DNA of 64,000 nucleotides from Mobula hypostoma (taxonomy: Eukaryota), in NCBI RefSeq assembly GCF_963921235.1, contig NC_086097.1, positions 148,430,001 to 148,494,000 of the forward strand, given 5' to 3'. Positions 15,725 through 62,061 of this stretch are shown here, piece by piece. The translations under genes were made by a program, and so were the position numbers. Under the pieces are notes generated by a model, which did no database searches, was not told the origin of the DNA, and was given only the letters and a program-made list of their open reading frames with translations. Position 1 is the stretch's first letter. Every line of letters starts with the position of its first letter.

Positions 15725-15936
15725 AGGGCAAACCAGGAAACTATATCATTGGTGGTAAACTTACTGGAGAGGGTTCTGACAGACAGCATTTGGTAATAAT
15801 CTGAAAATTTATTGTGCATCGTTCATGATCATAATCATTCCAAACTTGTCTATATGGACTTCAGTAAGTTTTTCAGCAAGGTCACAAATGGTAAGCTGAT
15901 CCAGGTGGTGAAATCGCAAGCGTGGGCTAGCATCGG

Positions 15937-18540
15937 AAACAAAATAGACAATAGACAATAGGTGCTGGAGTAGGCCATTCAGCCCTTCAAGCCAGCACTG
16001 CCATTACTGTGATCATGGCTGATTATCCACAATCAGTACCCTTTTCCTGCCTTCTCCCCATATCCCTTGACTCCACTATCTTTAAGAGCTCTATCTAACT
16101 CTTTCTTGAAAGAATCCAGAGAATTGGCCTCCACTGCCTTCTGAGGCACAGCATTCCACAGAACCACAACCCTCTGTGTGAAGAAGTTTTTCCTCAACTC
16201 CATTCTAAATGGTCTACCTCTTATTCTTAAACTGTGGCCTCTGGTTCTGGACTTCCCCAACATCGGGAACATGTTTCCTGCCTCTAGCGTGTCCAATCCC
16301 TTAATAATCTTATATGTTTCAATCAGATCCCCTCTCATCCTTCTAAATTCCAGTGTATACAAGCCCAGTCGCTCCAATATTTCAACATGTGACAGTCCCG
16401 CCATCCCGGGAATTAACTTCGTGAACCTACACTGCACTCCCTCAATAGCTAGAATGTCCTTTCTCAAATTTACAGACCAAAACTGTACACAATACTCCAG
16501 GTGTTGTCTCACCAGGGCTCTGTACAACTGCAGAAGGACCTCTTTGCTCCTATACTCAACTCCGCTTGTTATGAAGGTCGACATGCCATTAGCTTTCTTC
16601 ACTGCCTGCTGTACCTGCATGCTTACTTTCAGTGACTGATGAACAAGGACACCTAGATCTCATCCTACTTCCCCTTTTCCTAACTTGACACCATTCAGAT
16701 AGTAATCTGCCTTCCTGTTCTTGCCACCAAAGTGGATAACCCCACATTTATCCACAGTAAACTGCATCTGCCATGCATCTGCCCACTCACCCAACCTGTC
16801 CAGTTCACCCTGCATTCTCATAACATCCTCCTCACATTTCACAGTACCACCCAGCTTTGTGTCATCTGCAAATTTGCTAATGTTACTTTTAATCCCTTCA
16901 TCTAAATCATTAATGTATATTGTAAATAGCTGCAGTCCCAGCACCAAGCCTTGCGGTACCCCACTAGTCACTGCCTGCCATTCTGAAAAGGAGCCATTAA
17001 TCCCTACTCTTCGTTTCCTGTCTGTCTGCAAACCAATTTTCTATCATGTCAGTATCCTACCCCCAAAACCATTTGCTCTAATTTTGCCCACTAACCTCCT
17101 ATGTGGGATCTTATCAAAGGCTTTCTGAAAGTCCAGGTACACTACATCCACTGGCTTTCCCACGTCCATTTTCATTGTTACATTCTCAAAAAATTCCAGA
17201 AGATTAGTCAAGCATGATTTCTCCTTCATAAATCCATGCTGACTTGGACCTATCCTGCTACTGCTAATCAAATATCCCGCTATTTCATCTTTTATAATTG
17301 ATTCTGGCATCTTCCCCATCACTGATGTCAGACTAACTGGTCTATAATTGCCTGTTTTCTCTCTCTCTCCTTTCTTAAAAAGTGGGATAACATTAGCTAC
17401 CTTCCAATCTGCAGGAACTGATCCTGAATCTATAGAACATTGGAAAATGATTACCAATGCGTCCACGATTTCTAGAGCCACCTCCTTAAGTACCCTGGAA
17501 TGCAGACCATCAGGCCCTGGGGATTTATCAGCCTTCAGTCCCATCAGTTTACCCAACATCATTTTCTGCCTGATGCGAATTTCCTTCAGTTCCTCTGTTA
17601 CCCTAAGTCCTCTGGCCACTATTACATGAGGGAGATTGTTTGTGTCTTCTGTAGTGAAGACAGATCTAAAGTACCTGTTCAGCTCGTCTGCCATTTCCTT
17701 GTTCCCCATAATAATTTCTCCCGTTTCTGTCTTCAATGGCCCAACTTTAGTCTTAACTAATTTTTTCCTCTTCACATACCTAAAGAAGCTTTTACTATCC
17801 TCTTTTATATTCTTGACTAGCTTACCTCCGTATCTCATCCTTTCCCCCGTATTACCTTTTTAGTTATCTTCTGTTGCTCCTTAAAAGTCTCCCAATCCTC
17901 TGGCTTCCCGCTCATCCTTGCTATGTTATACTTCCTCTCTTTTATTTTTATACTGTCCTTAACTTTCTTTGTCATCCACGGTTGCCCCTTACTCCCCTTA
18001 GAATCTTTCTTTCTCTTTAGAATAAATTGATCCTGCACCCTCTGTATTATTCCCAGAAATACCTGCCATTGTTGTTCCACTGTCATCCCTGGTAGGGTAT
18101 CTTTCCAGTCAACTTTGGCCAGCTCCTCCCTCATGGCTCCATAGTCCCCTTTGTTCAACTGTAATACAGTACTGACACTTCCGATCATCCCTTCTCCCTC
18201 TCAAATTGTAGACTAAAACTTATCATATTATGGTCACTACCTCCTAATGGCTCCTTTACCTTGAGTTCCCTTATCAAATCTGGCTCATTACACAACACTA
18301 AGTCCAGACTTGCCTTCTCCCTGGTAGGCTCTAATACAAGCTGCTCTAAGAATCCATCTCTGAGGCATTCCACAAAATCTCTTTCTTGGGGTCCAGTACC
18401 AACCTGATTTTCCCAGTCTACCTTCATGTTGAAATCCCCCATAACCTTTGTGACATGCTAATTTTAACTCTAGATTTAACTTGCACCCTATATCCAGGCT
18501 ACTGTTTGGGGGCCTGTAGATAACTCCCATCAGGGTCTTT
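15937..18540 (-). mobile_element. Relatively young 5'-truncated CR1 LINE (end of endonuclease, RT, 3' tail), frameshifted
   Basis: ORF pieces GDFN...SDHNMI, KSPGPDG...NYRPVSLTS...YLDFQKAFD, GVPQG...FADDTK, LEYCVQFW; (atagaca)n tail at 15940-15960. Confidence 0.95.
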
Positions 18541-38914: not shown

Positions 38915-39100
38915 CTCCTCACCTGGATACACCTATTGCTTGCCAGCTCTTGCTCTACCCCTTCCTTCCACTTTTTTATACCAGCTATCTCCCTTCTACC
39001 TTTCAGACCAGATGAAGGGTCTCAACTCGAAACATTGACTATTTCTCTCCAGAGATGCTGCCTGAACTGCTGAGCTCTTCCAGCATTTTGTGTGTTTCCC
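38915..39100 (+). mobile_element. Penelope-like 3' remnant with decayed hammerhead motif
   Basis: ccagatgaagggtctcaactcgaaacattgact...gatgctgcctg...ccagcattttgtgtg. Confidence 0.7.
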
Positions 39101-43138: not shown

Positions 43139-44800
43139 TAGAAACATAGAACATAGAAAACCTACAGCATAATACAGGCCCTTCAGCCCACAAAGCTGTG
43201 CCAAGCATGTCCTTACCTTAGAAATTACCTAGGGTTACCCATAGCCCTCTATTTTTCTAAGCTCCATATATCTATTCAGGAGTCTCTTAAAAGACCCTAT
43301 CGTATCTGCCTCCACCACCATCACCGGCAGGCCACTCCACGCACTCACCACTCTTTGCGTAAAAAACTTACCCCTGACATCTCCTCTGTACCTACTTCTG
43401 AGCACCTTAAAACTGTGCCCTCTCGTGCTAGCCATCTCAGCCCTAGGAAAAAGCCTCTGACTATCCACACGATCAGTGCCTCTCATCATCTTATATACCT
43501 CTAGCAGGTCACCTCTCATCCTCCATCGCTCCAAGGAGAAAAGGTTGAGTTCACTCAACCTGTTCTCATAAGGCATGCTCCTCAATCCAGACAACATCCT
43601 TGTAAATCTCCTCTGCACCCTTCTCTAGTTTCCACATCCTTCCTGTAGTGAGGCGACCAGAACTGAGCACAGTACTACAAGTGGGGTCTGACTAGAATCC
43701 TATATAGCTGCAACATTACCTCTTGGCTCCTAAACTCAGCCCCCACGATTGATGAAGGCCAATGCACCGTATGCTTTCTTAACCACAGAGTAAACCTGCT
43801 CAATAGCTTTGAGTATCCTATGAACTCAGACACCAGATCCCTCTGATCCTCCATACTGCCGAGAGTCTTACCATTAATACTACATTCTGCCGTTATATTT
43901 GACCTACCAAAATGAACCACCTCACACTTACCTGGGATGAACTCCATCTACCACTTCTCAGCCCAGTTTTGCATCCTATCAATGTCCCGCTGTAACCTCT
44001 GACAGCCCTCCACACTATCCACAACACCTCCAAATTCTGTGTCATCAGCAAATTTACTAACCCATCCCTCCGCTTCCTCATCCAGGTCATTTATAAAAAT
44101 CATGAAGGGTAGAGGTCCCAGAACAGATCCCTGAGTCACACCACTGGTCACTGACCTCCATGCAGAATATGACCCGTCTACAACCACTCCTTGCCTTCTG
44201 TGGGCAAGCCAGATCTGGATCCACAAAGCAATGTCCCCTTGGATCCCATGCCTCCTTACTTTCTCAATAAGCCTTGCATGGGATACCTTATCAAATGCCT
44301 TGCTGAAATCCATATATACTACATCTACTGCTCTACCTTCATCAATGTGTTTAGTTACAACCTCAAAAAATTCAATCAGGCTCGTAAGGCACGACCTGCC
44401 TTTGAGAAAGCCATGCTGACAATTCCTAATCATATTATACCTCTCCAAATGTTCATAAATCCTGCCTCTCAGGATCTTCTCCATCAACTTACCAACCACT
44501 GAAGTAAGACTCACTTGTCTATAATTTCCTGGGCTATCTCTACTCCCCTTCTTGAATAAGGGAACAACATCTGCAACCCTCCAGTCCTCTGGAACCTCTC
44601 CAGTCCTCATTGATGATGCAAAGATCATTGCCAGAGACTCAGCAATCTCCTCCCTGGGGTACATCTCGTCCGGTCCTGGTGACTTATCCAACTTGATGCT
44701 TTCCAAAAGCTCCAGCACATCCTCTTTCTTAATAACTACATGCTCAAGCTTTTCAGTCCACTGTAAGTCATTCCTACAATCGCTAAGATCCTTTTCCGTA
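43139..44800 (-). mobile_element. 5'-truncated CR1 LINE (RT and C-terminus)
   Basis: ORFs 43948-44880 (KSPGPD, YMDFSKAFD, FADDT) and 43235-43618; (atagaa)n tail. Confidence 0.95.
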
Positions 44801-44962
44801 GTGTTCTCAATACTCATTGCTGATTTATTTACTGTTATTGTTTTGTCTTTTGCATTTGCACCATTTGTTGTCTTCTGCACTCTGGTTGAACAACCTAGTT
44901 GTGTGGTCTTTTATTGATTCTGTTATAGTTATTAATCTATAGATTTGTTAAATATGTCCCAA

Positions 44963-46203: not shown

Positions 46204-46450
46204 AAGAAAATGAATCTCAGAGTTATCTATGATGACAAAAATGTACTTTAATAATAAATTTATTTTGAACTTTGAACTTTGATCTTTGAAAACCCAGCTT
46301 TCTGAAAATGTGAATGTTATTCCTCATTGTCAACAGTGCCTTCACTTTAAACACTGTTACCTGCTGAATCATAAATTAATCTCAAGCTAAACAGTAGTTT
46401 GTCCTATCTGCAAACCTTAGCATTGCTCATCAAATTATTTAAGAAAACCT

Positions 46451-47707
46451 GTGATTTGGCAAGGAAGGAAACCTAGAATTCGATATAACACTTTACAGTT
46501 AGGGAAGGAAAGAGGAGGTATGGTTCTTCCTTGCCTGAGAAATTATTTTTATGCCTCACAGATAACCCCTCTGTTATATTGGTGTAATAGGGAATATAAG
46601 GCTAGATGGAAGGAAATAGAATTTGGATTAGTTGACAGTTTTCCTCTTCAGGCCTCAATAGCTGACAAAGGATTGATGGCCCAGTTGGAAAAATTTAATA
46701 ATGCTTGGATAAATCTTACATTAAAAGTATGGCAGAAGGTGGTTAATTCATGTGGAATTAATAACATGCTAAAACTCTTTAGATGGTGTGCATATGATAC
46801 CGAATTCCTTCCCAACAGAGGAGATAAAAGATTTGAGCTATGGGTAAAGAAAGGTCTTACAACCTACCTCTCATTTATAGATAAAAGAGTATTACAAAGG
46901 TTCCAAATCCTGCAGGACAAACATGGCCTAGAACATAATGACTTTTTTAGGTGCCTTCAAATACGAAACTATGTTAACCAGAGTTGTAGATATACAGACC
47001 TATCAACAGTAGAATTAGAATTTTTCAAGATTCTGAATTCGGCTTGCAGTTCAATACCTAGTAAGTCAGTTTCTCGCCTATATAATGCACTCTCCCATGC
47101 TAAAAATGTAAATACACTGTATATTATAGAGAAGTGGGAGAAAGAAGCGGGGTTGGTACTTTCAGAGGAGGCTTGGGGGAAAATCTGCAGCTTTCAATGG
47201 TCCTCGACTAATTCTTTGACTTGGAGAGAACATTGTTGGAAAAACATTATAAGATACTTCAAGACCCCATATCAGGAAAAATATAAAGATACAAATGTGA
47301 TGTGTTGGAGAAGGTGCGGCTCTAAGGAGGCAAATCATTTTCATATTTTCTGGGATTGCCCTAAATTAAGTCTATTTTGGGAAGGTATTCATAGAACATT
47401 AGTTAAGGTACTTAGGTCCCAGATACCTCTGAACTTTGAGACGCTCTATTTGGGGCATGTATTGTTCCTTGAACAGAAGGAAGATATAAAGTTGCTGCAG
47501 GCCCTCTTAGCGGCAAGTAAGAAATCAATCACTAGAAAATGGCTAAATCCAATACCACCTACATTAGAAGATTGGTACGAAATTATCTTGGAAATATTTA
47601 AAATGGAAAAGTTGACCTACTCCCTGAGAACTCAAAAAGAAACATTTTATCAAATCTGGAATAAATGGATTGAATATATAACCCCAATGCGAGCAGACTT
47701 TAGATGA
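46451..47707 (+). CDS. L1 ORF2 C-terminal portion (post-RT region and CCHC knuckle), open but 5'-truncated
   Basis: IWQGRKPRI...KERGGMVLP...CWRRCGSKEANHFHIFWDC; 418 aa without stops. Confidence 0.85.
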   Translation: MIWQGRKPRIRYNTLQLGKERGGMVLPCLRNYFYASQITPLLYWCNREYKARWKEIEFGLVDSFPLQASIADKGLMAQLEKFNNAWINLTLKVWQKVVNSCGINNMLKLFRWCAYDTEFLPNRGDKRFELWVKKGLTTYLSFIDKRVLQRFQILQDKHGLEHNDFFRCLQIRNYVNQSCRYTDLSTVELEFFKILNSACSSIPSKSVSRLYNALSHAKNVNTLYIIEKWEKEAGLVLSEEAWGKICSFQWSSTNSLTWREHCWKNIIRYFKTPYQEKYKDTNVMCWRRCGSKEANHFHIFWDCPKLSLFWEGIHRTLVKVLRSQIPLNFETLYLGHVLFLEQKEDIKLLQALLAASKKSITRKWLNPIPPTLEDWYEIILEIFKMEKLTYSLRTQKETFYQIWNKWIEYITPMRADFR

Positions 47708-49415: not shown

Positions 49416-49715
49416 TATCTAAATATGCATTCACCTTGAGCTTTGAAGTGACAGCAGCAAAAGCTTTTGTCTGAAGTACCTGGGTTACATAAGAATAAGG
49501 AACTGAGGATGGAAAGCAGAATCCGTAGGTAATGCACATGAGGCACACAACAACTTTAATTCAGCTTAAGGAAACTTACTGAAATAATGAATCAAAATGC
49601 ATTCTCCAAAGTTCCTCTCAGTTCCAGTGCTTTTCTATCCAACTTTTGAAGCTTTATCACCACATTGCAATGCTGTTATCTGGTTGGCTTCACGATACAG
49701 ACCTACACTCAGGGT

Positions 49716-49883
49716 ACACACATAAAAAATGCGGGTGAATGCAGCAGGCCAGGCAGCATCAGTAGGAAGAGGTACAGTCGACGTTTCGGGCCGAGACCCT
49801 TTGGGTGCTGCCTGGCCTGCTGCGTTCACCAGCATTTTTTGTGTGTGTTGCTTGAATTTCCAGCGTCTGCAGATTTCCTCGTG
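49716..49883. mobile_element. 168-bp miniature fold-back Penelope-like element
   Basis: Inverted termini homologous to 57911-58000 and 61500-61580; 14-bp TSD cctacactcagggt / cctacgctcagggt. Confidence 0.88.
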
Positions 49884-50179
49884 CCTACGCTCAGGGTGTT
49901 CACAACGAGCTTGTTGTCTTAATGGTCCAGCTCCAGACTGACCTACAGTTGGGGAAAGGACATTTGGTTGCACCAACAAGGACAGGGCCAAGGGTTACAG
50001 GGGAGAACCTGACGTCCTGAGAGGGGATAGGAATTTTAATTACTACATCACTAACTGCATTCTTGGGCATTAGACAGACAACAATGCGAACATCTGATGT
50101 TGTCCAGATTGTGCAGTGGTAGTTAGAGCTACTGGAACCCTTCTTAAATTGTAAAGAAGAAACACAAAAAGAAAAACTG

Positions 50180-50620
50180 TGAAAACATGAGAGAGTGGAG
50201 ATGCTGAAATCTGGAGCAACACACAAGGCGATGGAGGAAATCAATAGGTCAGGCAGCATTTATTGAGGGAAATAGGCAGTCAATATTTCAGGTCAAGGTC
50301 CTTCAAGAGGAGATAGCAGGTATAGAAAGGTGGAAGGGTGGAGCAAGGTGATAGTGAGGTGGTGAAAGGCAGGTGAGGGCAGGTAGAGTGAGAAAAATGT
50401 CAGAAGCTGGGGGATGATAGGTGGAAGTGACAAGAGGCTGAAGATTGCAGAGTCTGATAGGAGAGGGAAATGGAGCATGGAATAAAGAGAGGGAGGTAAG
50501 AAGGGTGAGATGAGTGGAAGGAGTGTGTGGGGAGAGAGGCTGATGGGAGAAGGTGGATTATGAAGAGACAGATGACCAATGGCAGAAAATGATGGACTAT
50601 GATAGAAGAGGAAGGTGTGA
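50180..50620 (-). mobile_element. Penelope-like 3' fragment (purine-rich UTR and terminus)
   Basis: gatgctgaaatctggagcaacacac..ggcagcat..tttcaggtcaag, then a GA-rich tract like 58020-58300. Confidence 0.65.
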
Positions 50621-55472: not shown

Positions 55473-55614
55473 TAACACACATAAAATGCTGGAGGAACTC
55501 AGCAGGCAGGCAGCACCTGTGGGAATGAATAAGCAGTCGACATTTTGGGCAAGACCCTTCATCAGGGCCAGCATTCCTCCAGCATTTTGTGTGTATTGCC
55601 CTGGATTTCCAGCA
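55473..55614. mobile_element. Miniature fold-back Penelope-like element; tail interrupted by CR1 and resumes at ~57441
   Basis: aacacacataaaatgctggagg...gtcgacattttgggcaagacccttcatcagg | ttcctccagcattttgtgtgt..ggatttccagca. Confidence 0.75.
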
Positions 55615-57440
55615 GCTTTTACAAGTATATTAAGACCAAAAGGATTGTAAGGGATAAAGTTGGTCCTCTTGAAGATCAGAGTGGTCGGCTTTGTGCAGAA
55701 CCAAAAGAAACGGGGGAGATCTTAAATGGGGTTTTTTGCGTCTGTATTTACTAAGGAAGCTGGCATGAAATCTATGGAATTGAGGGAATCAAGTAGTGAG
55801 ACCATGGAAACTGTATAGATTGAAAAGGAGGAGGTGCTTGCTGTCTTGAGGAAAATTAAAGTGGATAAATCCCTGGGACCTGACAGAGTGTTCCCTTGGA
55901 CCTTGAAGGAGACTAGTGTTGAAATTGCGGGGGCCCTAGAAGAAATATTTAAAATGTCGCTGTCTACGGGTGAAGTGCCGGAGGATTGGAGAGTGGCTCA
56001 TGTTGTTCCGTTGTTTAAAAAAGGATCGAAAAGTAATCCGGGAAATTATAGGCCAGTGAGTTTAACGTCAGTAGTAGATAAGTTATTGGAGGGAGTACTA
56101 AGAGACAGAATCTACAAGCATTTGGTTAGACAGGGCCTTATTAGGGAGAGTCAACATGGCTTTGTGCGTGGTAGGTCATGTTTGACCAATCTGTTGGAGT
56201 TTTTCGAGGAGGTTACCAGGAAAGTGGATGAAGGCAAGGCAGTGGATATTGTCTACATGGACTTCAGTAAGGGCTTTGACAAGGTCCCGCATGGGAGGTT
56301 AGTTAGGAAAATTCAGTCGCTAGGTATACATGGAGAGGTGGTAAATTGGATTAGACATTGGCTCGATGGAAGAAGCCAGAGAGTGGTGGTAGAGAATTGC
56401 TTCTCTGAGTGGAGGCCTGTGACTAGTGGTGTGCCACAGGGATCAGTGCTGGGTCCATTGTTATTTGTCATCTATATCAATGATCTGGATGATAATGTGG
56501 TAAATTGGATCAGCAAGTTTGCTGATGATACAAAGATTGGAGGTGTAGTAGACAGTGAGGAAGGTTTTCAGAGCCTGCAGAGGGACTTGGACCATCTGGA
56601 AAAATGGGCTGAAAAATAGCAGATGGAGTTTAATACTGACAAGTGTGAGGTATTGCACGTTGGAAGGACAAACCAACGTAGAACATACAGGGTTAATGGT
56701 AAGGCACTGAGGAGTGCAGTAGAACAGAGGGATCTGGGAATACAGATACAAAATTCCCTAAAAGTGTCGTCACAGGTAGATAGGGTCATAAAGAGAGCTT
56801 TTGGTACATTGGCCTTTATTAATCAAAGTATTGAGTATAAGAGCTGGAATGTTATGATGAGGTTGTATAAGGCATTGGTGAGGCCGAACCTGGAGTATTG
56901 TGTTCAGTTTTGGTCACCAAATTACAGGAAGGATATAAATAAGGTTGAAAGAGTGCAGAGAAGGTTTACAAGGATGTTGCCGGGACTTGAGAAACTCAGT
57001 TACAGAGAAAGGTTGAATAGGTTAGGACTTTATTCCCTGGAGTGTAGAAGAATGAGGGGAGATTTGATAGAGGTATATAAAATTATGATGGGTATAGATA
57101 GAGTGAAAGCAAGCAGGCTTTTTCCACTGAGGCAACGGGAGAAAAAAGCCAGAGGAGATGGGTTAAGGGTGAGGGGGTAAAAGTTTAAAGGGAACATTGG
57201 GGGGGGGCTTCTTCACACAGAGAGTGGTGGGTGTATGGAATGAGCTGCCAGACGAGGTGGTAAATGCGGGTTCTTTTTTAACATTTAAGAATAAATTGGA
57301 CAGATACATGGATGGAAGGTGTATGGAGGGATATGGTCCATGTGCAGGTCAGTGGGACTAGGCAGAAAATGGTTCGGCACAGCCAAGAAGGGCCAAAGGG
57401 CCTGTTTCTGTGCTGTAGTTACTATGGTTCTATGGTTCTA
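55615..57440 (+). mobile_element. Young 5'-truncated CR1 LINE
   Basis: RT ORF 55834-56619 and in-frame 56623-57180 are separated only by a TAG (expected TGG); (ctatggtt)n tail. Confidence 0.95.
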
Positions 57441-57975
57441 TCTGGAGCACCTCTTATGTTTATGATTTGCATAGAGCATAGTTTGAATCTGTTTTCAATA
57501 ATAGTTTGTGCAGGGCATCATTGTGCACTGTAAGCTTTGCATTCTGAATGGGACATGGAATGACAGATGACATGCAGACTACTAAGAGCATTAAGTTTTA
57601 CTGGATATTGTGCTGTTTTCATTTTCAGAAGCATTCAAAGCTATATTCTGGTTGAAATCTCATTTGCATGCCAGTGGGTTGTTCTGCACTTGTTGAGGGA
57701 AACATTATCAGAAAAGATAATTCCAGCAGAAGCTGAGCAAATGACTTAGATCATTCTCCTAGGATTATTGTACAAAGGAAAATCAATGAGCCAGTTGATA
57801 GCAAAGAAGGGCAATTTGAGTGTCAACAAAGCTAAGTTTACATGCAACAAACTGACTTTATTTGCTGAGCTGGGAGATGCAGAAGTATGAATGACAAAGC
57901 ACATTTTTTAAAGCAACACACATCAAAGTTGCTGGTGAACACAGCAGGCCAAGCAGCATCTATAGGAAGAGGCGC

Positions 57976-58011
57976 AGTCGACGTTTCAGGCCGAGACCCT
58001 TCGTCAGGACT
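57976..58011 (-). ncRNA. Minimal type I hammerhead ribozyme motif (PLE terminus)
   Basis: Minus strand AGUC-CUGACGA-aggg ucucgg ccu-GAAAC-GUC-GACU: core boxes, stem I AGUC/GACU, palindromic ACGU stem III, GUC cleavage triplet. Confidence 0.8.
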
Positions 58012-58303
58012 AACTGAAGGAAGAGTGAGTAAGGGATTTGAAAGCTGGAGGGGGAGGGGGAGATGCAAAATGATAGGAGAAGACAGGAGGGGGAGGGATA
58101 GAGCCGAGAGCTGGACAGGTGATAGGCAAAAGGGGATACGAGAGGATCATGGGACAGGAGGTCCGGGAAGAAAGACGGGGGGGGGTGACCCAGAGGATGG
58201 GCAAGAGGTATATTCAGAGGGACAGAGGGAGAAAAAGGAGAGTGAGAGAAAGAATGTGTGCATAAAAATGAGTAACAGATGGGGTACGAGGGGGAGGTGG
58301 GGC

Positions 58304-59724
58304 CTAGTGGAAGTTAGAGAAGTCGATGTTCATGCCATCAGGTTGGAGGCTACCCAGACGGAATATAAGGTGTTGTTCCTCCAACCTGAGTGTGGCTTCA
58401 TCTTTACAGTAGAGGAGGCCGTGGATAGACATGTCAGAATGGGAATGGGATGTGGAATTAAAATGTGTGGCCACTGGGACATCCTGCTTTCTCTGGCGGA
58501 CAGAGCGTAGATGTTCAGCAAAGCGGTCTCCCAGTCTGCGTCGGGTCTCACCAATATATAAAAGGCCACATCGGGAGCACCGGACGCAGTATATCACCCC
58601 AGTCGACTCACAGGTGAAGTGATGCCTCACCTGGAAGGACTGTTTGGGGCCCTGAATGGTGGTGAGGGAGGAAGTGTAAGGGCATGTGTAGCACTTGTTC
58701 CGCTTACACGGATAAGTGCCAGGAGGGAGATCAGTGGGGAGGGATGGGGGGACGAATGGACAAGGGAGTTGTGTAGGGAGCGATCCCTGCGGAATGCAGA
58801 GAGGGGGGGGAGGGAAAGATGTGCTTAGTGGTGGGATCCCGTTGGAGGTGGCGGAAGTTATGGAGAATAATATGTTGGACCCGGAGGCTGGTGGGGTGGT
58901 AGGTGAGGACCAGGGGAACCCTATTCCTAGTGGGGTGGTGGGAGGATGGAGTGAGAGCAGATGTACGTGAAATGGGGGAGATGCGTTTAAGAGCAGAGTT
59001 GATAGTGGAGGAAGGGTAGCCCCTTTCTTTAAAAAATGAAGACATCTCCCTCGTCCTAGAATGAAAAGCCTCATCCTGAGAGCAGATGCGGCGGAGACGG
59101 AGGAATTGCGAGAAGGGGATGGCGTTTTTGCAAGAGACAGGGTGAGAAGAGGAATAGTCCAGATAGCTGCGAGAGTCAGTAGGCTTATAGTAGACATCAG
59201 TGGATAAGCTGTCTCCAGAGACAGAGACAGAAAGATCTAGAAAGGGGAGGGAGGTGTCGGAAATGGACCATGTAAACTTGAGGGCAGGGTGAAAGTTGGA
59301 GGCAAAGTTAATAAAGTCAACGAGTTCTGCATGCGTGCAGGAAGCAGCGCCAATGCAGTCGTCGATGTAGCGAAGGAAAAGTGGGGGACAGATACCAGAA
59401 TAGGCACGGAACATAGATTGTTCCACAAACCCAACAAAAAGGCAGGCATAGCTAGGACCCATACGGGTGCCCACAGCTACACCTTTAGTTTGGAGGAAAT
59501 GGGAGGAGCAAAAGGAGAAATTATTAAGAGTAAGGACTAATTCTGCTAGACGGAGCAGAGTGGTGGTAGAGGGGAACTGATTAGGTCTGGAATCCAAAAA
59601 GAAGCGTAGAGCTTTGAGACCTTCCTGATGGGGGATGGAAGTATATAAGGACTGGACATCCATGGTGAAAATAAAGCGGTGGGGGCCAGGGAACTTAAAA
59701 TCATCGAAAAGTTTAAGAGCGTGA
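58304..59724 (-). pseudogene. Penelope-like RT + GIY-YIG endonuclease, left arm (5'-truncated, homopolymer frameshifts)
   Basis: MDVQSLYTSIP, QTKGVAVG, FLRYIDD, FLD, YYKPT; CKRNKCYTC linker; VIYCVRCSRCGLLYIGETRRRLGDRFAEH. Confidence 0.93.
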
Positions 59725-59730
59725 CACTTC

Positions 59731-61155
59731 TCACGCTCTTAAACTTTTCGATGATTTTAAGTTCCCTGGCCCCCACCGCTTTATTTTCACCATGGATGTC
59801 CAGTCCTTATATACTTCCATCCCCCATCAGGAAGGTCTCAAAGCTCTACGCTTCTTTTTGGATTCCAGACCTAATCAGTTCCCCTCTACCACCACTCTGC
59901 TCCGTCTAGCAGAATTAGTCCTTACTCTTAATAATTTCTCCTTTTGCTCCTCCTATTTCCTCCAAACTAAAGGTGTAGCTATGGGCACCCGTATGGGTCC
60001 TAGCTATGCCTGCCTTTTTGTTGGGTTTGTGGAACAATCTATGTTCCGTGCCTATTCTGGTATCTGTCCCCCACTCTTCCTTCGCTACATCGACGACTGC
60101 ATTGGCGCTGCTTCCTGCACGCATGCAGAACTCGTTGACTTTATTAACTTTGCCTCCAACTTTCACCCTGCCCTCAAGTTTACCTGGTCCATTTCCGACA
60201 CCTCCCTCCCCTTTCTAGATCTTTCTGTCTCTGTCTCTGGAGACAGCTTATCCACTGATGTCTACTATAAGCCTACTGACTCTCACAGCTATCTGGACTA
60301 TTCCTCTTCTCACCCTGTCTCTTGCAAAAACGTCATCCCCTTCTCGCAATTCCTCTGTCTCCGCCGCATCTGCTTTCAGGATGAGGCTTTTCATTCTAGG
60401 ACGAGGGAGATGTCTTCATTTTTTAAAGAAAGGGGCTTCCCTTCCTCCACTATCAACTCTGCTCTTAAACGCATCTCCCCCATTTCACGTACATCTGCTC
60501 TCACTCCATCCTCCCACCACCCCACTAGGAATAGGGTTCCCCTGGTCCTCACCTACCACCCCACCAGCCTCCGGGTCCAACATATTATTCTCCGTAACTT
60601 CCGCCACCTCCAACGGGATCCCACCACGAAGCACATCTTTCCCTCCCCCCCTCTCTCTGCATTCCGCAGGGATCGCTCCCTACACAACTCCCTTGTCCAT
60701 TCGGACCCCCCCCATCCCTCCCCACTGATCTCCCTCCTGGCACTTATCCGTGTAAGCGGAACAAGTGCTACACATGCCCTTACACTTCCTCCCTTACCAC
60801 CATTCAGGGCCCCAAACAGTCCTTCCAGGTGAGGCATCACTTCACCTGTGAGTCGACTGGAGTGATATACTGCGTCCGGTGCTCCCGATGTGGCCTTTTA
60901 TATATTGGTGAGACCCGACGCAGACTGGGAGACCGCTTTGCTGAACATCTACGCTCTGTTCGCCAGAGAAAGCAGGATCTCCCAGTGGCCACACATTTTA
61001 ATTCCACATCCCATTCCCATTCTGACATGTCTATCCACGGCCTCCTCTACTGTAAAGATGAAGCCACACTCAGGTTGGAGGAACAACACCTTATATTCCG
61101 TCTGGGTAGCCTCCAACCTGATGGCATGAACATCGACTTCTCTAACTTCCGCTAG
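59731..61155 (+). pseudogene. Penelope-like RT + GIY-YIG endonuclease, right arm (5'-truncated, one frameshift at the C-run ~60705-60713)
   Basis: ORF 59792-60832 (RT: GVAMG, RYIDD) and 60829-61155 (GIY-YIG: VIY..YIGET..RFAEH..EQHLI..G..PDGMN). Confidence 0.93.
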
Positions 61156-61447
61156 GCCCCACCTCCCCCTCGTACCCCATCTGTTACTCATTTTTATGCA
61201 CACATTCTTTCTCTCACTCTCCTTTTTCTCCCTCTGTCCCTCTGAATATACCTCTTGCCCATCCTCTGGGTCACCCCCCCCCGTCTTTCTTCCCGGACCT
61301 CCTGTCCCATGATCCTCTCGTATCCCCTTTTGCCTATCACCTGTCCAGCTCTCGGCTCTATCCCTCCCCCTCCTGTCTTCTCCTATCATTTTGCATCTCC
61401 CCCTCCCCCTCCAGCTTTCAAATCCCTTACTCACTCTTCCTTCAGTT

Positions 61448-61483
61448 AGTCCTGACGAAGGGTCTCATCCCGAAACGTTGACT
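61448..61483 (+). ncRNA. Minimal type I hammerhead ribozyme motif (PLE terminus)
   Basis: AGUC-CUGACGA-aggg ucucau ccc-GAAAC-GUU-GACU. Confidence 0.75.
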
Positions 61484-62061
61484 GCACCTCTTCCTACAGA
61501 TGCTGCTTGGCCTGCTGTGTTCACCAGCAACTTTGATGTGTGTTGCTTGAATTTCCAGCATCTGCAGAATTCCTGTTGTTCACATTTTTAAAGAACTGGA
61601 TTGCTGCTGGATTGGATGGTAGATTAATAGTGAACCTTGATGTAGAACTTAAAATCCCTCAGTAATATAGGGAAAGAAAATGTAAAAAACATCTTCAGCC
61701 ATTGCATGCTTTACTTTATGTCATTGATCAAACAAAAAAAAGAGGAGCGCATGTATTCACCAGTTGACCATGAATTGGGACAAAAATGTTTGGTCATCGG
61801 AATGATATATGAAATTTGTAGGGATCACACAAATTCACAGCAACGACATCTGAGGACAAGTTAACCAATCTAATATTTCTTTGGTTATAGAAGGTTAATA
61901 CGTTATTTAACTGAGTTATTTCAGAGGATTGAAGGAATTTTATTGTGTAGATAACTATTTCTTCTGATGGGGTCTCCAGAATTTGACAGCATGTCTGTAT
62001 GTTATGTGTGGTTGGAATGGACATATCAATTAGGTAAGTTGTTCTTGCTTGTTGTTTGTGT

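Follow-up and report, generated by a model that had tools for sequence, protein, structure and literature searches.

How did a palindrome of ~3.7 kb, turning on six central bases, come to lie at positions 57900–61593 of the window, the 64,000-nucleotide stretch of Mobula hypostoma DNA analysed here? Global alignment of the reverse complement of 57911–59724 (1814 nt) with 59731–61548 (1818 nt) gave 98.5% identity, with 23 mismatch and four gap columns; the arm-to-arm differences amount to 22 substitutions and two indel events. Both indels sit in C/CT runs (58804/60652 and 58753/60704–60707), and the innermost 224 bp, counted from the centre, are free of mismatches. The alignment confirmed what the first-pass annotation had claimed about the inverted arms, their coordinates and their scattered differences, as well as the ~32 extra 3′-terminal nucleotides on the right arm only, which we place at 61549–61580. 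After 1.8 kb, the 5′ ends of the two arms lie no more than 11 nt apart. One target-site duplication, 14 nt on the left (six T) and 13 nt on the right (five T), encloses both arms, supporting the proposal of a single Penelope-like insertion event. The duplication is whole except for one T, and flanking DNA is neither lost nor doubled; the last 3 nt of the left target copy also match the end of the left arm. Neither the arm match, the tail, the target duplication nor the domain matches described below are within reach of chance. We conclude that the palindrome is one dead Penelope-type insertion: the locus is real, ordinary in kind and long for its kind.

Table 1. Features of the palindromic insertion, in window coordinates
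Feature	Position	Strand	Basis
Target-site duplication, left copy, 14 nt	57900..57913	+	Sequence
Microhomology of 3 nt between left target copy and left arm end	57911..57913	+	Sequence, arm alignment
Left arm: inverted, tail-less, 5′-truncated Penelope-like copy, 1814 nt	57911..59724	-	Arm alignment
Minimal hammerhead-like core (CUGANGA...GAAA), left arm pLTR	57983..58007	-	Pattern match, fold
Linker (C-x4-C-x2-C) and GIY-YIG frame, left arm	58304..58750	-	Translation, Pfam
RT palm/thumb frame of the left arm, set apart from the endonuclease frame by two frame changes (near 58804 and near 58752)	58803..59724	-	
Native hairpin in RT coding sequence: 5-bp stem 59720–59724/59731–59735, 6-nt loop 59725–59730	59720..59735	+	
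Right arm: direct, tailed, 5′-truncated Penelope-like copy	59720..61580	+	Arm alignment
RT palm/thumb frame of the right arm, with a frame change in the complex indel 60704–60707	59720..60712	+	Translation, Pfam
Right arm linker and GIY-YIG frame with CCHH-type motif, stop at end	60709..61155	+	
Minimal hammerhead-like core, right arm pLTR	61452..61476	+	Pattern match, fold
Cluster of 6/22 arm-to-arm substitutions (partner positions 57962–57992)	61467..61497	+	Arm alignment
One-sided 32-nt "tail"	61549..61580	+	Arm alignment; concept from the accessible parts of PMC3846280 and PMC11167929
Target-site duplication, right copy, 13 nt	61581..61593	+	Sequence, arm alignment

Both arms matched Pfam RVT_1 and then GIY-YIG, in that order; homologous proteins carry the two domains on a single chain. 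The RVT_1 matches (E = 5e-5 to 9e-5) fall below Pfam's curated cut-off, and of the GIY-YIG matches (E = 7.5e-5 and 2.5e-4) only that of the right arm passes it. The arm translations are 89–95% identical to three Mobula-annotated proteins. The endonuclease translation contains a CCHH-type motif (V-I-Y, C-S-R-C, Y-I-G, then two histidines), and in the accessible text of PMC8557442 a pair of cysteines separates GIY from YIG in the CCHH motif of EN+ Penelope elements. Upstream of the endonuclease, both arms encode the cysteine linker C-K-R-N-K-C-Y-T-C (C-x4-C-x2-C); the same text defines the Neptune and Nematis clades by a zinc-finger-like C-x2-5-C-x2-C linker before the endonuclease. Membership of the Penelope/Poseidon clade was rejected, since its definition requires the absence of this linker. 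Further features of an EN+ Penelope insertion are present, namely an adjacent inverted 5′-truncated copy, a 32-nt one-sided tail and a target duplication, variable in length among such elements and 13/14 nt here. Judged by sequence, the arms are pieces of a Neptune/Nematis-type EN+ Penelope-like element. Neptune is the likelier clade, given that Neptune and Poseidon are the vertebrate clades in the available portion of 10.64898/2026.07.22.740005.

Compared with a 654-aa shark homologue, the arms start at residue 326. Between reverse transcriptase (RT) and endonuclease the reading frame changes once in the right arm and twice in the left. Hence the description of the palindrome as spanning the entire inserted RT and GIY-YIG region holds for the part that was inserted, but the N-terminal 325 residues are missing and neither arm reads through from RT to endonuclease. 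Neither arm has the single intact ORF and 5′-side pLTR of a full-length active copy. On these sequence grounds, each arm is a dead fragment of a Penelope family rather than an active copy, and the insertion is likely functionless because the whole protein cannot be encoded. Fold prediction gives the candidate hammerhead core of each pLTR a stem II and a closing stem; Rfam returned no hammerhead match at E values up to 5 in the palindrome sequence searched. Six weak Rfam hairpin matches at the centre are due to the palindrome itself, and a microRNA precursor or structured RNA family was rejected, the matches being far below gathering scores.

The best clue to mechanism is the loop at the turn. 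Bases 59725–59730 had been taken for a 6-nt spacer; they are instead the loop of the element's own 5-bp hairpin in RT coding sequence. The right-arm RT frame runs through these bases back to 59720, encoding R-D-T-S-H, which matches shark and ray homologues, and we therefore reject a foreign spacer. Loose ends of family contigs show that they diverge from the window exactly before 59720. Stems of at least 5 bp with loops of 3–6 nt occur at 9 of 7448 position-by-loop combinations in the arm, and given this rarity the turn site was likely chosen by base pairing. Folding of the final 41 nt of the cDNA predicts a minimum-energy structure (−3.3 kcal/mol) in which the 3′-terminal 5 nt are paired. Such base pairing most likely reflects snap-back of the cDNA end.

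We therefore favour, with a probability of roughly 0.58, a single insertion in which the first cDNA stopped, folded on the native 5-bp hairpin and self-primed the left arm. The GIY-YIG endonuclease would have made staggered nicks ~13 nt apart at an AT-rich site, and target-primed reverse transcription would have started at the tail end (61580) and stopped at 59720, after ~1.86 kb. The cDNA 3′ end would then have snapped back (5 bp, 6-nt loop) and been extended on the cDNA, generating the left arm. The growing strand would have joined the left target end at the element's second, tail-less start site, where it either used the 3-nt microhomology or annealed to a second, short cDNA that had been primed at that site. 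The arms would have been equal or nearly so at birth, and would have drifted by ~1% since. In the available sections of the respective papers, self-priming is proposed for Penelope elements at palindromic inverted junctions (PMC3846280), cDNA snap-back is observed for R2 (PMC11371274), and human fold-back junctions are marked by 2–8 bp of inverted microhomology (PMC3907307).

An identical junction is expected if two separately primed cDNAs annealed via the same five bases, and in this respect the sequence alone is ambiguous. Both nicked strands might have primed reverse transcription, one at the tail site and the other at the tail-less site, on two RNAs of the same sub-lineage, each copied for ~1.8 kb, with the cDNA ends joined via the 5-bp microhomology; we consider this less likely. 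The accessible part of PMC11167929 describes an anole element that nicks and extends both strands, with two starts bounding the tail and a predicted dimer. Three other copies within the window share with the left arm an end at the tail-less site of the family. Within the window, 8 kb away, lies a small head-to-head insertion (49716–49883) whose tail-less arm extends further 5′ than its tailed arm. Both observations indicate that a tail-less arm can be primed independently, and the asymmetry of the small insertion favours two templates. Other copies have joints between opposite strands whose breakpoints lie far apart (3 among the 15 joints listed, with 908 further), which points the same way. 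Against this account, both cDNAs would have had to stop after 1.8 kb at points no more than 11 nt apart, presumably a rare outcome of independent truncation, although a coupled dimer could achieve it.

Lineage markers bear on the same choice. Family variability was read from contig sites, 40 of 150 being listed, 39 of them inside the element. Outside the sites at which they differ, the arms carry the identical letter at 28 of the 28 listed, which counts against two templates. Organism A has seven of these shared letters at much higher frequency than its relative B, for instance at 59945 (23–53% versus 0.2%), 59956 (35–59% versus 0.3%) and 61394 (23–30% versus 0.6%). Both arms thus appear to come from one young sub-lineage of the element family. 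Two family-variable, non-CpG sites at which the arms do differ favour two templates: at 60795 both letters are common in the family, that of the left arm reaching 32–40% in organism A, and at 60628 the right-arm letter has a family frequency of 12–14%.

The substitutions are unevenly spread: the outermost 88 nt hold six of them, the remaining 1730 nt the other 16. The six fall within 31 nt (P = 0.00045 in a test that kept CpG sites fixed, for a window size picked post hoc; P = 0.006 at 50 nt and 0.07 at 100 nt), and this cluster in the hammerhead region hints at a separate template for that end. A three-part reaction, comprising snap-back of the long cDNA, a DNA-to-DNA copy of ~1.7 kb and capture by a short second cDNA at the tail-less site, would account for the greater divergence of the outer 90 nt through that capture; this fuller sequence of events seems unlikely. 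The uneven spread would also fit a later rearrangement, in which a short-armed insertion broke, folded at the hairpin and was repaired, the inner left arm being the later copy and the outer 90 nt original. The available parts of PMC3907307 and 10.1101/2024.12.14.628481 document that hosts repair DNA by fold-back at short inverted microhomologies. However, the target duplication is intact bar one T, with no loss or duplication of flank, and gene conversion, local mutation or a second, short cDNA made during insertion would explain the cluster just as well. We regard such a rearrangement as improbable.

A fold-back chimeric read or a mis-joined pair of repeat copies would also produce a palindrome. 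Among the 32 pieces and 15 joints listed from the family contig alignment, none crosses the centre or the left junction, and the right-junction contig has just 20 tail letters where 31 are standard, and comes from a sample that may be the source of the assembly. Nevertheless, the 22 arm differences include changes on both arms: of the 11 differing sites listed, 10 have the letter of the family minority in the right arm, and the left arm has an odd residue at four RT codons relative to 18 homologues. Frameshifts differ between the arms, unique flanks with the target duplication lie on both sides, the left end conforms to the tail-less rule of the family, and a native hairpin lies at the turn. 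The shared young sub-lineage together with arm-private changes argues against an artefact, which we consider very improbable, in agreement with the first-pass annotation. Two independent insertions lying head to head by chance are more improbable still. The high abundance of the family, with 73,397 to 279,945 contigs per run, speaks for such an arrangement, but a single target duplication surrounds both arms with none at the centre, and the arms share sub-lineage and end point.

Contigs from other samples add limited context. No empty site was seen in any contig run; the contigs of organism B (depth 0 over the right flank, 61744–61980) and organism C (whose contig starts at 61589) do not cover the insertion site. 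One sample yielded, in two runs, an unbroken contig over 61561–62050, a hint that this individual has no empty allele, contigs being a record of presence rather than absence. Flank divergence of organism B, ~1.3–1.6% over 41 sampled words and too rough for dating, is compatible with insertion after the A–B split. A crude splice-site scan for a host gene gave 34 candidates, and Pfam found no match in 28 peptides (18 splice-scan candidates and 10 longer open frames).

Most elements of this architecture have published counterparts. In the accessible sections of PMC3846280, inverted Penelope insertions of Adineta vaga, such as Pen2a_Av, have head-to-head arms in one target duplication, a 31-bp tail at one end (32 nt here) and palindromes at the inverted junction, interpreted as self-priming on an antisense template; long tandem or inverted Pen3/Pen4 structures broke the rotifer assembly. 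The inverted pieces with stated sizes there are pLTR-sized (181–218 bp) beside a longer direct copy, whereas in the ray the inverted arm, at 1.8 kb, equals the direct arm in length and the turn lies inside RT coding sequence. The canonical EN+ unit in the available text of PMC8557442 likewise combines 5′ truncation with an adjacent inverted 5′-truncated copy. This unit and the anole Poseidon element PAc (PMC8557442 and PMC11167929, in the parts available) share with the ray copy a one-end tail of 30–40 nt, an AT-rich target, a pLTR hammerhead and an AC-rich tail-less end; Poseidon lacks the extra cysteine linker, in contrast to the ray element with its Neptune/Nematis linker. At R2 (PRINT) 5′ junctions the cDNA 3′ end primes cDNA-complementary synthesis before the junction forms, as proposed here, albeit for a different retroelement class, engineered and in human cells (PMC11371274, available part). 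Human fold-back duplications, including those at L1 breaks, have a single-copy loop and 2–8 bp of inverted microhomology at the turn (PMC3907307; 10.1101/2024.12.14.628481, both in part). They duplicate host DNA, with sequenced loops of 766 bp to 70 kb in the accessible text of PMC3907307, whereas in the ray only element DNA is doubled, around a loop of 6 nt, and the target duplication survives.

The palindrome had been called unusually long and nearly spacerless. It is long for its kind, but its novelty was overstated: head-to-head arms, palindromic junctions and a one-sided tail of 30–40 nt are published (PMC3846280, PMC8557442 and PMC11167929, in the parts available), and 49716–49883 is a small example. 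Literature searches, covering main texts and few subscription papers, listed no report of symmetric Penelope palindromes of kilobase size from cartilaginous fish. Cruciform extrusion and double-stranded RNA formation are plausible for such a sequence.

In their accessible portions, PMC8557442 names the formation of inverted junctions in Penelope elements as a problem for in vitro study, and in PMC11167929, whose PAc experiments do not cover that formation, what follows priming has yet to be validated. Turning on a native 5-bp hairpin, the symmetric arms of 1.8 kb described here offer a clean example for self-priming, although one locus cannot decide. Long palindromes are unstable in bacteria and yeast (PMC3855049, available part); this one, whose perfect core of 224 bp surrounds a 6-nt loop, has probably persisted in a vertebrate germ line long enough for its arms to diverge by ~1%. 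The present copy gives no sign of function; what is of value is a census of such loci rather than this single copy. If kilobase near-spacerless palindromes prove common and long-lived in ray germ lines, they would provide a genome-wide record separating snap-back from two-template priming, and would mean that rays tolerate structures that break yeast and bacterial chromosomes.

The inverted arms lie 6 nt apart, both within the window, and the coordinates that the first-pass annotation gave for the palindrome held when the arm alignment and target-word copies were checked. Reverse-complemented, 57911-59724 (1814 nt) aligns with 59731-61548 (1818 nt) at 98.5% identity, with 23 mismatch and 4 gap columns that represent 22 substitutions and two indel events, the remaining mismatch column being part of a complex indel. 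Transitions account for 18 of the 23 mismatch columns. CpG columns, 114 of the 1818 in the alignment, hold 9 of the 22 substitutions. The core pairs perfectly for 224 bp outward from the 6-nt loop. Only the right arm has a tail (32 extra nt, 61549-61580). The 14-nt target word left of the unit (57900-57913), whose final three bases also match the left arm end, recurs one T shorter on the right (61581-61593).

Contig support for the palindrome is at the right junction, with no contig or read seen to cross the left junction or the centre: one contig of run X2 spans 61561-62050 without differences and one of run X4 spans 61562-62050 with one gap, both from the same sample, perhaps the assembly's source, and with just 20 tail letters against a 31-letter standard. 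Nor did contigs of organisms B and C show an empty site. The argument against an assembly artefact, which we consider very improbable, rests on internal features of the palindrome: changes specific to each arm, frameshifts that differ between arms, unique flanks bearing the target duplication, and arm ends that obey the family rule. We conclude that the palindrome is a real, single-event, dead Penelope-like insertion; that two insertions produced it is extremely improbable.

RT and GIY-YIG matches are present in both arms, and the nearest annotated proteins come from Mobula hypostoma, at 89-95% identity, and Hypanus sabinus, at 72-88%, which makes a stingray or devil ray the likely host. A C-x4-C-x2-C linker and a CCHH-type endonuclease motif are visible in translation; motifs of these types are assigned to the Neptune and Nematis clades in PMC8557442. 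Close to the outer end of each arm is a minimal hammerhead core (57983-58007, 61452-61476), not called in the arms by an Rfam search; hammerhead motifs have been described in Penelope-like pLTRs (PMC4209133). Measured against a shark homologue of 654 residues, the arms start at residue 326, with one frame change ahead of the endonuclease in the right arm and two in the left, and neither arm can give a working protein.

The six central bases had been read as a spacer. Six bases do separate the arms, but they are not foreign: the right arm's reading frame continues across them as R-D-T-S-H, in agreement with shark and ray homologues at this place. Moreover, in both organism A runs, contigs of other family copies diverge from the window sequence exactly before position 59720, the loose ends there coming from 20 and 31 records. 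A native hairpin is therefore part of the element. If a cDNA stopped at 59720, its last 41 nt would have the five terminal bases paired in the lowest-energy DNA fold predicted (-3.3 kcal/mol). In the arm, stems of at least 5 bp with loops of 3-6 nt occur at 8 sites, in 9 of 7448 combinations. Given this rarity and the terminal pairing, base pairing very likely chose the turn position.

Family features in the window and letters common to both arms
Feature	Position	Strand	Remarks
Native hairpin	59720-59724 / 59731-59735 (stem)		6-nt loop; palindrome turns on it
Miniature head-to-head insertion, same family	49716-49883 (with flanks 49702-49897)		14-nt duplication, 13/14 match
Older pLTR fragment, related Penelope-like copy	38964-39096	+	Hammerhead core; ends at tail-less site
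Older pLTR fragment, related Penelope-like copy	55474-55566	-	Hammerhead core; ends at tail-less site
Older pLTR fragment, related Penelope-like copy	50196-50311	-	Continues into tail
Letters common to both arms	59911, 59945, 59956, 60418, 60516, 61189, 61394		Enriched in organism A

The left arm ends in a GT-rich stretch (AC-rich on the cDNA), and three other copies in the window end at the same site (39096, 49716, 55474). For an anole element, PMC11167929 reports reverse transcription from two sites bounding a 30-40 nt tail, with both target strands nicked and extended. The miniature insertion follows the plan of the large palindrome, with an inverted arm that lacks the tail and a direct arm that has it, and is asymmetric, its tail-less arm extending further 5' and including part of the hammerhead motif. 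Barring a later loss of sequence, this layout requires that the tail-less arm was primed separately. Priming from both ends is therefore likely a usual route for the family, and what the large palindrome leaves to explain is how its inner junction formed. PMC3846280 describes Penelope insertions whose arms stand head to head, with a target duplication, a 31-bp tail and palindromes where the inverted copies join, and interprets them as self-priming on an antisense template; an adjacent inverted 5'-truncated copy with a one-sided tail is considered typical (PMC8557442). The architecture of the large palindrome is thus a published one; it is long and symmetric, and its junction is informative. 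Our literature search found no report of kilobase symmetric Penelope palindromes in cartilaginous fish.

We compared contigs of four runs with the right arm and right flank; of 150 variable sites, 40 were shown, all but one of them in the element. Where the arms do not differ (28 of the shown sites), they have in common seven letters far commoner in organism A than in its relative B. Both arms thus come from one young sub-lineage, which probably spread after the A/B split, contig depth not being equal to copy count. At all 11 shown sites where the arms differ, the family's other letter is that of the left arm; the right arm has the family minority letter at 10. Against 18 homologues, the left arm is odd at RT codons 88, 189, 240 and 292, sharing its residue with one distant protein at 240 and one ray protein at 292. 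The changes in both arms fit post-insertion drift.

From this product we infer that a single long cDNA would have snapped back on the native hairpin, the copied strand joining at the tail-less site through microhomology or a short second cDNA (probability about 0.58). We favour snap-back because it explains arm symmetry without coincidence. Counting against a single template are 60795, where the arms differ and both letters are common across the family; 60628, where the right-arm letter stands at 12-14% in organism A; and the concentration of 6 of the 22 substitutions in the hammerhead region (61467-61497 / 57962-57992). For this cluster, in a window picked after looking, 20,000 shuffles with CpG sites held fixed gave P = 0.00045 (31 nt), 0.006 (50 nt) and 0.07 (100 nt); the version of snap-back with a second cDNA would explain it too. 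Within the cluster, stem II is changed in both arms and core bases are intact. Annealing of two long cDNAs via the same five bases would yield the same junction, but requires both ends to fall within 11 nt, and we regard it as a less probable alternative. cDNA snap-back has been reported for R2 (PMC11371274), and short inverted microhomology marks host fold-backs (PMC3907307; 10.1101/2024.12.14.628481). Formation by a later rearrangement is improbable.

Elsewhere in the window, 55819-57440, 15900-18200 and 43150-44910 are putative decayed CR1/L2-like LINE reverse-transcriptase frames, one terminating ~460 nt left of the palindrome. A stop-free frame of 428 aa at 46421-47707 (+), which had no match in a Pfam search at E 0.01, resembles the C-terminal portion of ORF2 from an L1/Tx1-type LINE. 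A crude splice-site scan and a Pfam search of peptides identified no host exon in the 64-kb window; the scan's top two exon candidates, 60670-60828 (+) and 58631-58786 (-), lie in the linker region of the arms.

Several ray proteins under host-gene names are made largely of the element's sequence, which may reflect a tendency of the family towards exonisation or mis-annotation. A transcript across the palindrome would be predicted to fold into a duplex of ~1.8 kb, and the perfect core with its short loop should make formation of a cruciform or hairpin more likely. Palindrome instability is reported to drop as spacer length and divergence increase (PMC3855049). Only one point is mildly surprising: the palindrome has likely survived long enough for its arms to diverge by ~1%.
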